From: Alloprevotella sp.
GTDB taxonomy: Bacteria; Bacteroidota; Bacteroidia; Bacteroidales; Bacteroidaceae
Direction of reading: 5' to 3'
NCBI GenBank assembly: GCA_045124135.1
Contig: JBGVLE010000076.1
Coordinates: forward strand, 19,382 to 83,381
DNA: 64,000 bases
The notes beneath the pieces are model-generated. The model saw nothing but the letters and a program-made list of their open reading frames with translations. It made no database searches and was not told the DNA's origin. Below are positions 107 to 62,662 of the stretch, in pieces. The position numbers and the translations under genes were made by a program. Every line of letters begins with the position of its first letter. Positions within the stretch are counted from its first letter, which is position 1.

Positions 107-540
107 AAGTGTGTGTTGATGACTTGTGATTTGTAGACTGCAAATTTAGGAATAAATCGACGACTGACGGCATTTTTTTGCCGACAAAGATTTATTGGCC
201 GGGTTTTTGCCGCCTCAAGTTGGCATTTGTCTCGGAAAAACGGAAAATGGTGCCGGTGGCGGATGATTGATCGGACATAGTTCATTCGTGTGGGTATATA
301 TGGTATGCGATGGGGTGGGGTGTTCAGAAAATGATGGGTCTTGGTGTGGGCATTTTGTCAAGATAGCGGCTAAAAAACGGCCTTTCTGCCCGTGATTTAC
401 CGCTCTGACCTTCCTTCCCCTTCCCAAATTGCCCTTGGCGTCGGCCTTCGTCTCGTACTCAGCGCTCCAAAACCTTACCGTGCCGCCTCGGTCCCAACCT
501 GCCGAGAATGCCATTCCGGAGAATTTTTAACCATTTTTGA

Positions 541-825
541 AGTTCAAATGGAGGGGCCTGGGGTGACGCAAATAGTTGGTTTTTTCTTCTAAAAGCCGTC
601 TGGCGCGGACGGAATGGCGGTAAAAAGTTCACAAATTCAAGATTTTCGCTCCTGTCATAAGGACCGTCGGTCGCGGAATAAGGACAGATATTACGGGGCT
701 AAGGACAATTTTTCCTGTCCTTAGCCCCGTAACGGCCTGAAAAGCACAAAAAAAGAGGCCACAGGGGGCTCTCTCTTATTTCCTACTTCAAAGATAACGC
801 CAAAAGGCGCCACGCCAAAAGACAA
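541..825 (-). repeat. Dispersed ~285-bp intergenic element, copy 1 (strand = direction of its promoter-like module)
   Basis: GTTCA(542)..GTGACG(563); unit centres at 657/678/699/720; CAAAGATA 789-796; AAAAGACAA 817-825. Confidence 0.85.
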
Positions 826-844
826 TCAGGCCGCCGACGGTCTG

Positions 845-12310: not shown

Positions 12311-12597
12311 TGGTACAAAAACAGGGGTGGTGTGTGACAAAATTTATCTGAAAATCTTTTGAAAACCATCGCCGACGTCGCAGAAGCGATGGTTTTCGAC
12401 ATAAAAACGTCTTGCGTCGCTCGCGACGGCTTTTCCGACGTACGCCCATAAGGACTGTCGCCGCGGCGATAAGGACAGTTTTCTCTGTCCTTATGACAGT
12501 AAAGCACTGAATAACAATAAAAGAGGCCCCGTTAAGGGCCTCTTTTTCTTTTCTTACCTCAAAGGTAAGACCAAACGGCTGGTCGTAAAAAGACAAA
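12311..12597 (-). repeat. Dispersed ~285-bp intergenic element, copy 2
   Basis: Unit centres 12448/12469/12490; perfect hairpin 12519-12546; CAAAGGTA 12560-12567; AAAAGACAA 12588-12596. Confidence 0.85.
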
Positions 12598-30061: not shown

Positions 30062-30348
30062 TGTTCACAACCGAGGGTTGAAAATGACGAAAATACCTTG
30101 ATTGTTTGCAGAAAATCATCTCCGGCAGTCGCCGTGGCCGCTCAAAAAGCCCGAAACGGCCACTTTCATCTCTTTTCTTGGGCTTGGATGCGCCTGTCAT
30201 AAGTCCGAATAATCCTGTCATAAGCCCGATTTTTTCTCTCCTTATCCCCGTAAACGTTTGAAAATGAACGAAAGTGACTCTCTCAGGGCCTTCCTCCTTT
30301 TCTCTTGCCTCAAAGATAGTTTCATTTTGGCGGAATGAAAAAGACAAA
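30062..30348 (-). repeat. Dispersed ~285-bp intergenic element, copy 3
   Basis: GTTCA 30063, ATGACG 30084; unit centres 30199/30220/30241; CAAAGATA 30311-30318; AAAAGACAA 30339-30347. Confidence 0.85.
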
Positions 30349-41479: not shown

Positions 41480-41835
41480 TGTTCACAAAAGCCGGTCGCC
41501 TGTGACGGTCTCCAACATCTTTTAAGGGTCTGCCGCCGATTTTGATATTTTGTGTCACGGTATGTGTGGGATTGTTAAAAACGCTTAACGATAATCGTAA
41601 GAGTCAAACAATCAGGACGATATGTCTTCTGAATGTTCTGAAGAACCGTTCCTGCGCCTTCAAAAGCCTGTTTTGGCGGCCCGGCATAAGGCCGGTATTT
41701 CCTGCCATAAGCCCAGGCAAAACAGTCCTTATGTCCGTAACCCCTTGAAACGCAAAAAGAGAAGCCTTTTGTGGACCTCTCTTCTTCTTTCCTGTATCAA
41801 AGATAGCCCTCATACCGTCTGGCACCAAAAGACAA
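41480..41835 (-). repeat. Dispersed intergenic element, copy 4 (about 70 bp longer)
   Basis: GTTCA 41481, GTGACG 41502; unit centres 41686/41707/41728; CAAAGATA 41798-41805; AAAAGACAA 41827-41835. Confidence 0.85.
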
Positions 41836-54235: not shown

Positions 54236-54520
54236 TTTGTCTTTTTCGCTTGCAGCCGTCAGCGTTATCTTTGACGTAGGATAAAACAAAGAGGAGGCCT
54301 TTGGCCTCTTTTTTTGTGCCTGGCGGCCCGTACGGGGATAGGGCCCGTTTTTCCTGTCCTTATGGCAGGAATTTCTGTCCTTATTCCCGCAATGTTTTTC
54401 CCTAAAGCTGTCGGTTTTCAGCGGTTCAAACTGCCGCCGCATCAGCCTGGAGGCATTCCCGAAAGCATTTCAGGCAAAAAAATGTTTAGTTTCGTCACGC
54501 TCGACCCGCCTTTCTGAACA
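54236..54520 (+). repeat. Dispersed ~285-bp intergenic element, copy 5 (inverted orientation)
   Basis: TTGTCTTTT 54237-54245; TATCTTTG 54266-54273; unit centres 54338/54359/54380; CGTCAC 54493, TGAAC 54515. Confidence 0.85.
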
Positions 54521-60391: not shown

Positions 60392-60467
60392 TGGTGATTC
60401 GCTTGGGGTTCGAACCCAAGACCCCAACATTAAAAGTGTTGTGCTCTACCAGCTGAGCTAGCGAATC
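60392..60467 (-). tRNA. tRNA-Lys (anticodon UUU), CCA encoded
   Basis: GATTCGC acceptor stem, AGCTCAGCTGGTAGAGC D arm, loop CTTTTAA, GGTTCGAACC T arm. Confidence 0.97.
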
Positions 60468-62377: not shown

Positions 62378-62662
62378 TTTGTCTTTTTGCTATCCGGCTT
62401 TTGGGCTTATCTTTGAGGTAGGATAAAAGAAGAGGAGGCCTTTTGGGGTCTCCTCTTTGTATTTCAGATGTTTACGGGGCTAAGGACAGGAAAAACTGGC
62501 ATAAGGACAGGATTTTCTGCGATACTGACAGTTTTTCTTCTCTGCCGTTTCGTCTCATTTTCATACCATTCCGCCAATTTTTTGTGCCGTGTGGCCGCTT
62601 CCGGCCGTATGGGCTGTTGAAAGATGTGGCATTGCGTCACGGTCGACCGGCGGTTTTGTCTG
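62378..62662 (+). repeat. Dispersed ~285-bp intergenic element, copy 6 (inverted orientation)
   Basis: TTGTCTTTT 62379-62387; TATCTTTG 62408-62415; hairpin 62430-62457; unit centres 62480/62501/62522; CGTCAC 62635. Confidence 0.85.

Follow-up and report, generated by a model that had tools for sequence, protein, structure and literature searches.

The window analysed here is a stretch of 64,000 nucleotides from Alloprevotella sp. (assembly GCA_045124135.1, contig JBGVLE010000076.1, positions 19,382 to 83,381 of the forward strand), and the subject of this work is a modular intergenic repeat of approximately 290 bp that occurs in it six times. An earlier note on the window had described the six stretches as copies of an unnamed element with fixed geometry and diverged sequence. 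They belong to a real, large and old dispersed family, with ~150 copies in the 2.35-Mb genome, which makes up ~2% of its length. Judged by its motifs, each copy carries a Bacteroidetes-type promoter with a predicted activity and start site, followed by a hairpin, an array of short units with a period of 21 bp, and a distant tail. All genomes compared are metagenome-assembled genomes (MAGs), 54-99% complete; the window's own genome, called G000 below, consists of 138 contigs and has 55% G+C, and the gene calls come from a crude in-house caller.

Copies of the element in the window

Read in the promoter direction, the modules are the head TTTTGTCTTTT, which is the best-conserved block of the family, 20 unconserved nucleotides, the box TAnnTTTG, a hairpin with a T-run, TTAC with the units, a variable stretch and the tail. 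Between the hairpin and the units we find TTTCAG, then 4-6 nt, then TTAC. The units are separated from the tail (family consensus TTTTTGTCAC-N11-12-TTTTTGAACA) by ~85 nt with no conservation of sequence but of kept length. Conservation stops at the element ends, and nothing is conserved beyond them.

Copy 1 (541..825, reverse strand, head at 825 and tail at 541) is delimited by the alignment, by the geometry and by an nhmmer score of 238 bits. All its modules lie on the reverse strand. Its head TT(T)TGTCTTTT, corresponding to the -33/-45 region of the promoter, occupies 817..828, with an information content of ~1.8-2 bits per position over 223 aligned matches, and its -7 box TATCTTTG, of the form TAnnTTTG, occupies 789..796. 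The hairpin with the subsequent T-run (746..786; folding energy -16.2 kcal/mol) has a purine-rich 5' arm and a T-rich 3' arm. TTAC and four 15-bp units, spaced by A/T-rich 6-bp linkers at a period of 21 bp (consensus CNGNC-MTWAK-GNCNG, core CTGTCCTTAT/ATAAGGACAG), are found at 652..732. The variable stretch (570..651), kept in length but not in sequence, is only 35-42% identical between paralogues and forms no hairpin above the shuffled level; the tail, (C)GTCAC-N16-TGAAC, is at 541..569.

Three more copies are on the reverse strand. Copy 2 (12311..12597), between convergent genes, has its head at 12588-12596, the box at 12560-12567 and GTCAC at 12334-12338, and is 87.5% identical to its orthologue in the related genome G059. 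Copy 3 (30062..30348; head 30339-30347, box 30311-30318, GTCAT 30084-30088) lies between divergent genes and shares 71% identity overall with its orthologue, in which the head, box and units are preserved. Copy 4 (41480..41835; head 41827-41835, box 41798-41805, GTCAC 41502-41506) is a long variant. On the forward strand, copy 5 (54236..54520; head 54237-54245, box 54266-54273, GTCAC 54494-54498) lies between convergent genes and is ~95% identical to its orthologue from the head through unit 3 and ~70% in the distal part; copy 6 (62378..62662; head 62379-62387, box 62408-62415, GTCAC 62636-62640) has a degraded TGAAC and an orthologue 85% identical to it.

The six copies were thus confirmed at the positions given in the earlier note: they align with 53 invariant columns, and the motif order is common to all six. 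The shared spacing holds as well. TTGTCTTTT and TAnnTTTG are 20 nt apart, except in copy 4, with 21 nt. In five copies TGAAC ends 254-256 nt after the box start, equivalent to 247-249 nt from the box end; the corresponding value for copy 4 is 325 nt. TACGG of the first unit follows the box start at a measured 65-66 nt in five copies; in copy 3 the search pattern gave 60 nt, 5 nt early, and TACGG was placed by eye in the 65-66 register. The constancy of this distance, claimed before, is therefore retained, and the earlier figure of 69-70 was counted from another reference point. Genome-wide, the box-to-GTCAC distance falls into classes of ~220 nt, ~241 nt (+21) and ~311 nt (+90). The head and the tail have TTTTTG(T/A)(C/A) in common, as direct repeats; terminal inverted repeats are not present, the ends TTTTTGTCTTTT and TTTTTGAACA being direct and not inverted repeats.

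Several deviating forms were also noted. Copy 4 and ~26 other loci of 380-420 bp form a longer size class, in which the distance from box to tail is ~70-90 nt above that of the main class; the extra sequence of copy 4 adjoins the tail and contains a second GTCAC-like motif. In unit-less short forms (G000:C31:1644-1800, G000:C20:9324-9406, G000:C6:42-123) the head, box and hairpin are joined straight to the tail or end there, and two forms with units have no promoter (G000:C37:5127-5237, with the hairpin before the units, and G000:C13:11861-11970). A tandem pair at G000:C131:70617-71309 comprises two copies that are 71% identical, which is among the most similar pairs in the genome.

Size of the family in the genome

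The earlier note had made the family depend on a profile that scores above background. The nhmmer profile built from the six window copies gave 204 matches across G000, and after one iteration these resolved into 151 distinct loci, 133 of them full length and 18 partial. The pattern TTGTCTTTT-N17-25-TAnnTTTG occurs 87 times in G000, compared to 0-1 occurrences of the reversed control, and 85 of the 87 fall within elements. Such numbers far exceed chance, and the extrapolation of hundreds of copies per genome was of the right order. The copies are strongly diverged: paralogues have a median identity of 50%, the nearest neighbour of a copy is ~60% identical to it, and the maximum is 81%.

As far as tested, the family has no known name. 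With Rfam, the whole window at the gathering threshold yielded no element match, only one tRNA (60395-60467, reverse strand), and copy 1 at E<=10 yielded only chance matches of the microRNA type far below the threshold. No match was found in viral contigs or in plasmid or phage records (six pattern matches in viral contigs are due to chance, none of them having a profile match), and no description of the family was found in the literature searched.

Promoter and hairpin

The -7 element of Bacteroidetes promoters is TAnnTTTG, with the middle two positions free. In the family box, TA and TTTG are near-invariant, and the middle reads TC, TA, CC, AA, AC, TT or AT, in agreement with the -7 element of the Bacteroidetes sigma-A factor (ABfr). 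A conserved A is found ~5 nt downstream of the box.

The hairpin comprises 14-17 bp (mean 16.6 bp) with a purine-rich 5' arm, a T-rich 3' arm and T-rich sequence after it. Counted from the predicted start, it spans, together with the T-run, +8 to ~+45, with the loop at the fixed position +23 to +29. Its mean minimum free energy is -18.8 kcal/mol on the promoter strand versus -14.0 kcal/mol on the opposite strand (Wilcoxon p = 2e-18), and its stems include 278 G.U pairs. Chimeras with swapped arms average -15.0 kcal/mol, a cost of ~3.9 kcal/mol, and shuffled sequences -11.3 kcal/mol. RNAalifold on the MAFFT alignment gave no structure, because the position of the hairpin shifts by a few columns between rows; it was therefore replaced by per-copy folding, the arm-swap test and counts on a hand-set structure, and the covariation on the hand-set 14-bp helix was reached by none of 500 shuffles. 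Hence, the hairpin behaves like a structure of the promoter strand in RNA or single-stranded form. As in an intrinsic terminator, a stable G+C-rich hairpin is followed by a T-run, with ~7 U in the 12 nt after the core, and with the A- and T-tracts on its flanks it has the appearance of an intrinsic terminator for both directions, which would work best in the promoter direction.

Unit array and distal stretch

Each copy has three, sometimes four, units separated by 6-bp A- or T-tracts, which yields a strict period of 21 bp, i.e. two helical turns. Units 1 and 2 form an inverted pair ATAAGGACAG-N6-CTGTCCTTAT, and single units occur in either orientation with the register kept. The strict unit motif is almost confined to the family, as 100 of its 105 genome-wide occurrences are within elements. 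The complementarity of the variable unit positions was not above the shuffled level in any pairing scheme, and hairpin models within a unit, between units or between the outer arms were dropped for want of covariation. Since the units occur in either orientation and have no RNA-type covariation, we read them at the DNA level, and the array resembles a set of dedicated, putative binding sites on double-stranded DNA rather than RNA. A likeness of the units to DnaA or LexA boxes was dropped after counting, which gave ~4-5 of 9 positions and the wrong spacing.

In the distal stretch the best local hairpin has -9.0 kcal/mol, compared to -8.5 for shuffles, and neither strand asymmetry nor a T-run at a set position was seen. 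We therefore rejected a further terminator, or any other structure, in this stretch, as nothing rose above the shuffled level.

Position relative to genes

Copies are found between convergent (n = 20) and divergent (n = 35) genes and in tandem contexts, where they are directed with the genes (n = 33) or against them (n = 31). The orientation relative to the neighbouring genes is thus random. Among spacers of at least 60 bp, the family occupies 28% of the divergent, 16% of the convergent and 11% of the tandem ones; overall, ~8% of spacers hold a copy, and no copy was found in the short junctions within operons. Where the head faces the 3' end of a gene, its median distance from the stop codon is 32 nt, hence for those genes the hairpin of the element is the first available terminator.

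Conservation of static copies

Three other genomes that carry the full family (G059, G074, G106) have an average nucleotide identity of ~90% to G000 and are syntenic with it. When the copies of these relatives were placed on G000 by their flanks, the difference in length was at most 2 bp in 30 of 45 cases, and no rearrangement between copies was seen in ~100 kb of synteny with G059. The rates of change were estimated from 20 orthologous pairs, which are non-independent. The head (95.5%), TTACGG (95%) and the -7 box (94.4%) are the most conserved parts, compared to 68.9% for the 20-nt spacer between -33 and -7; the hairpin stems are 85-87% identical versus 68% in the loop, the units 84-87% versus 74% in the unit spacers, the tail is 79% identical, and the variable stretch, at 72%, is approximately at the neutral level. 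Thus, the reading of kept spacing with drifting sequence as a mark of selection is borne out (84-95.5% in the motifs versus 68-72% in the spacer, loop and variable stretch). By these rates, purifying selection acts on the promoter, the hairpin and the units of static copies, which points to selection at the level of the host.

We observed no target duplications: the longest common word of the two flanks averages 4.42 nt, compared to 4.38 for shuffled pairs, in 24-nt windows, and 6.95 versus 6.95 in 120-nt windows, a test beyond whose reach are duplications of 2-4 bp, which would be eroded. The absence of terminal inverted repeats and target duplications reported before therefore holds statistically. 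Presence or absence differs among the four species at two loci, G000:C71 (~20.9 kb) and G000:C26 (~2.6 kb); a clean insertion was rejected at both, as the non-homologous flanks look like replacement or deletion. Just past the window end, at G000:C76:87142-88555, G000 has only the tail of a copy, followed by an open reading frame of 403 aa (crude caller), and G059 has a full copy and only the last ~140 nt of this frame, which constitutes a lineage-specific rearrangement.

Distribution and sister families

The full signature is present in 4 of 148 genomes of the genus, with 83, 84 and 60 pattern matches in G059, G074 and G106, respectively, and in none of ~380 genomes belonging to 34 further genera of the same family. 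When 185,579 species genomes were scanned, only these species appeared among the matches listed; the carrier MAGs there are 'Bacteroidales bacterium W0P37.017', 'Prevotellamassilia sp. isolate 39' and 'Alloprevotella sp. PUUB25_bin.006'. With one copy as a BLAST query, 40 relatives yielded no matches, because the copies are too diverged, and hence pattern and covariance-model searches were needed. The covariance model (R1) scored 107-136 bits in the carriers and 25-38 bits, a weak score, in the nearest non-carriers.

Reading these weak matches individually, we found sister families of the same 21-bp design with other unit sequences in G143, G124, G117, G132 and G121. In G143 (~4 loci), a promoter and a terminator are followed by TTAC and AGTCCCTGGGACAG units at 21 bp; in G124, by one CTGTCCCTATGACAG unit and then by CTACATG-N-CATGTAG units. 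In both, TTTG has the canonical 20-nt spacing from the -7 box. In G117, G132 and G121, arrays of ACGGGGCTAAGGCCAG / CTGGCCTTAGCCCCGT at 21 bp stand just after stop codons, apparently without a promoter module; the exact 14-mer GGCCTTAGCCCCGT occurs 209, 96 and 75 times in these genomes, at spacings of 21 or 42 bp, and the G117 family forms doublets with stems of 14-16 bp. Lineage-specific sequence variants are a known pattern of REP (repetitive extragenic palindromic) and REPIN families (PMC3116915, PMC3733652), and the best explanation for lineage-specific units on a common architecture is that a mobile repeat spread in separate bursts.

Among single sister loci, the one at L150:1175-1520 (G143:C50) has a ~22-bp direct repeat on both sides that includes the perfect palindrome TGCATAATTATGCA; it could be a target site, an att-like site or a site for a regulator of the genes nearby, and the second copy of this genome (L162) has no flanking direct repeat. 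The G124 sisters (L169-L171) combine two unit types within one array; their start, GATTTTAACAC, and their finish, ATGTTAATGTC, could form terminal inverted repeats that are imperfect, matching at 8 of 11 positions.

Candidate mobilising enzymes

G000 has one gene for a Y1 transposase of the IS200-like/RAYT type (G000:C98:28600-29052; 151 aa, with the HUH motif), and it is flanked by a palindromic repeat other than the element. Homologues were found in 62 of 148 genomes of the genus, and none was found in the carrier G074 or in G117, G132, G121 and G143, these genomes being 54-89% complete. The RAYT/Y1 transposase was dropped as a mobiliser on both grounds, the different flanking repeats and the distribution. 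The repeat beside it, outside the window (G000:C98:28100-29053), is a ~280-bp palindromic structure built of a second repeat family, GCCCTGTAAGGGC (~23 copies) and CCCAGGGCAGAGGTG (19 copies per strand), and looks like a separate REPIN-RAYT pair. Of seven tyrosine recombinase genes in G000, two adjoin a copy, and the link was dropped since about as many would be expected by chance. No transposase flanks any of the 18 partial loci, the search having covered the Y1 and tyrosine-recombinase families. We can name no dedicated enzyme for the family, a situation also reported for REPs of the CGTC type (PMC3733652).

Interpretation and alternatives

Of the four options offered in the earlier note, an old non-autonomous mobile family and protein-binding sites fit best; a ~240-nt non-coding RNA and a promoter-operator module are disfavoured. 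We suggest, with a probability of roughly 0.55, that the repeat is an old, now static family of the type of REPs or bacterial interspersed mosaic elements (BIMEs), kept by the host as a self-terminating promoter-terminator unit beside a protein-binding or curved-DNA array. In this scenario, a non-autonomous mobile element would have spread on the stem lineage of the four-species clade, related lineages having their own variants with the 21-bp period, and each surviving copy would be a self-contained module at a gene boundary. The hairpin would end transcription arriving from either side, and where the head abuts a stop codon, the median gap of 32 nt is too short to hold another terminator; the internal promoter would yield only a hairpin RNA of ~45 nt, or would simply hold RNA polymerase. 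The phased units may bind a dedicated dimeric protein specific to double-stranded DNA on one face of intrinsically curved DNA, in a manner that may be likened to BIME and REP arrays with gyrase or IHF in enterobacteria.

A number of points weigh against this explanation. The benefit to the host of ~150 promoters firing straight into a terminator is not obvious, and we identified no protein that binds the units. The activity and start site of the promoters are predictions only, as is termination at +45. The conserved TTTG of TTTTGTC is 26 nt from the -7 box, compared to 19-21 nt for the canonical -33 spacing, and TTTG is at the correct spacing only in copies with G after TTGTCTTTT. A simple terminator scan did not flag copy 1 and flagged the hairpin core of copy 5 on the opposite strand only, probably because the T-run pairs with the A-rich arm. 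Past mobility is deduced from the lineage-specific families only; we found neither clean insertions nor empty sites, target duplications or a linked transposase. Finally, incomplete MAGs could leave near-identical young copies unassembled, yet only 6 of the 18 partial loci are at contig ends.

The alternative that survives best, although we regard it as unlikely, is that ~150 short (~45 nt) hairpin RNAs with a purine-rich 5' arm are the selected product, acting for example as a sponge or decoy for an RNA-binding protein or a nuclease, and that the DNA repeats downstream are relics of a mobile ancestor. Between orthologues, no parts are conserved better than the promoter and hairpin; on the promoter strand the hairpin is optimised as an RNA and contains G.U pairs; and the unit-less forms, e.g. 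G000:C31:1644-1733, keep the head, hairpin and tail. However, the units and TTACGG are constrained too (84-95% identity), the sisters in G117, G132 and G121 keep unit arrays, apparently without the promoter module, and the stem sequences differ between copies, hence there is no common seed.

Quite unlikely, in turn, is a bacterial analogue of chromatin insulators, in which host-maintained self-terminating mini transcription units, coupled to phased arrays that bind a dedicated DNA-binding protein, would form a genome-wide set of ~150 elements for boundaries or topology, transcription-driven or carrying loaded RNA polymerase; such elements would have been born from a mobile repeat, with the unit sequences evolving by lineage across the genus.

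Three further explanations are very improbable. First, as in the option that the earlier note listed first, the copies could form a multicopy gene family whose product, a ~240-nt non-coding RNA, would start at the internal promoter and run across the units up to the tail. The promoter is conserved with the right pattern of variation, its distance to the tail is kept, and folding of the entire element is slightly more favourable on the promoter strand (-75.3 vs -69.8 kcal/mol). Such a transcript, however, would meet a strong hairpin with a T-run at +8 to +45, i.e. a terminator-like structure that ends at ~+45; the distal two thirds are unstructured, with no conserved structure, strand asymmetry, terminator or signal for a 3' end (-9.0 vs -8.5 kcal/mol in shuffles), and evolve at the neutral rate (72% identity). 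The units, in either orientation, have no pairing covariation, and there is no Rfam match.

Second, we hold it similarly doubtful that the family is a currently active non-autonomous element, a MITE (miniature inverted-repeat transposable element) or a REPIN, copied in trans by, for instance, the single Y1 transposase. The lineage-specific unit variants imply independent bursts, one Y1_Tnp gene is present in G000, and presence or absence differs at two loci among the four species; moreover, the conserved TTAC directly 5' of the inverted unit pair recalls the cleavage sites of IS200/IS605 elements, by comparison with IS608. If copying were still under way, near-identical copies should be seen, but the nearest are ~60% and at most 81% identical. 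Lengths and positions are kept between species, neither target duplications nor terminal inverted repeats are present, the two polymorphic loci are messy replacements or deletions, and the Y1 gene is flanked by a different repeat and was not found in G074, G117, G132, G121 and G143.

Third, the copies could be promoter-operator cassettes that place the neighbouring genes in the regulon of a unit-binding protein, and this we consider no more credible than the previous two. A promoter followed by phased palindrome-like sites resembles an operator array, and copies are enriched in divergent promoter regions, 28% of which are occupied. If the module drove its neighbours, tandem copies would tend to be directed with the genes; there is no such bias (33 versus 31), 20 copies have convergent neighbours, everything downstream of the promoter is separated from it by a terminator, and the unit motif occurs outside elements in only 5 of 105 cases.

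The least probable reading, a set of nucleoprotein sites for recombination or replication (att-like or iteron-like) whose constant length would result from wrapping of the DNA between the head, the units and the tail, would agree with the 21-bp register, the A-tract spacers, the kept length of ~255 bp, the head and tail direct repeats TTTTTG(T/A)(C/A) and the seven tyrosine recombinase genes of G000, two of them adjoining a copy, but ~150 dispersed chromosomal sites are unlike any known att or ori system, the adjacency is near chance given that ~8% of spacers hold a copy, and there are no rearrangements between copies in ~100 kb of synteny with G059.

Relation to known repeats

By analogy, the family resembles the known extragenic repeats of bacteria (REP/BIME, BOX, Correia) more than a gene for a long non-coding RNA. 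With the REP, BIME and REPIN families of Proteobacteria, including the IHF-binding RIB/RIP and the gyrase-binding BIME-2, it has in common the high copy number, the exclusively extragenic location, often at gene 3' ends or between convergent genes, short palindrome-like units in alternating orientation with defined linkers, the lack of terminal inverted repeats and target duplications, vertical inheritance with lineage-specific variants, and the proposed roles in termination, at mRNA 3' ends and in protein binding. Its 151 loci contain what defines REPs and REPINs, short, high-copy extragenic palindromic units in inverted doublets. It differs in having 15-bp units at a strict 21-bp period, whereas REPs are hairpins of 20-40 bp, and in the absence of a cognate RAYT among the genes found. 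REP palindromes carry a GTAG or CGTC tag at one end (PMC3733652), and the units of this family are preceded by TTAC instead, without either tag. It also has an internal promoter, a separate strong terminator and a tail ~160 bp away, and it has no abundant master sequence, its paralogues being ~50% identical, unlike the sister family of the G117 type (209 exact 14-mers).

BOX of Streptococcus pneumoniae and Correia/NEMIS of Neisseria are modular intergenic repeats with ~100-250 copies in genomes of ~2 Mb, a variable number of internal modules (boxB), and functional promoters, terminators or IHF sites; BOX is bounded by boxA and boxC, and Correia has terminal inverted repeats together with a duplication of TA. 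The family described here is likewise modular and dispersed, with a variable number of repeat modules, but it has no sequence similarity to either of them, and its promoter fires inwards, into the terminator, whereas theirs fire outwards. MITEs are similarly small, non-coding, multicopy and intergenic, with lineage-specific bursts; in contrast to them, no terminal inverted repeats, target duplications or parent insertion sequence with the same ends were found here, and the copies are old and strongly diverged outside the motifs. Arrays at plasmid origins and partition loci have 3-5 repeats of ~15-20 bp at a two-helical-turn spacing beside a promoter, and ribbon-helix-helix sites vary in orientation. 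The units of the family, adjacent to a promoter at two-turn spacing and variable in single-unit orientation, are similar to such iteron and operator arrays, but they are chromosomal, form ~150 arrays and adjoin no Rep or Par gene.

To our knowledge, work on dispersed extragenic repeats is ample for Proteobacteria and a few Firmicutes, and gut Bacteroidales have hardly been studied in this respect. Here, such a family fills 11-28% of the inter-operon spacers in four uncultured species similar to Prevotellamassilia and Alloprevotella. It stands out in that one cassette unites promoter, terminator and a repeat array phased at 21 bp, and in that its motifs are under measurable purifying selection though the copies no longer move, which makes it a good case for how selfish repeats turn into elements of gene boundaries or chromosome structure of the host. 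Annotation of promoters, terminators and small RNAs in these MAGs should mask or model the family, and the lineage-specific unit variants could serve as markers of strains or species.

Two minor observations concern the surroundings of copy 1. Between its tail and the next called gene lie 434 nt (window 107-540) without a called gene, and at window position ~361-375 the sequence of G059 is longer than that of G000 by ~370 bp.

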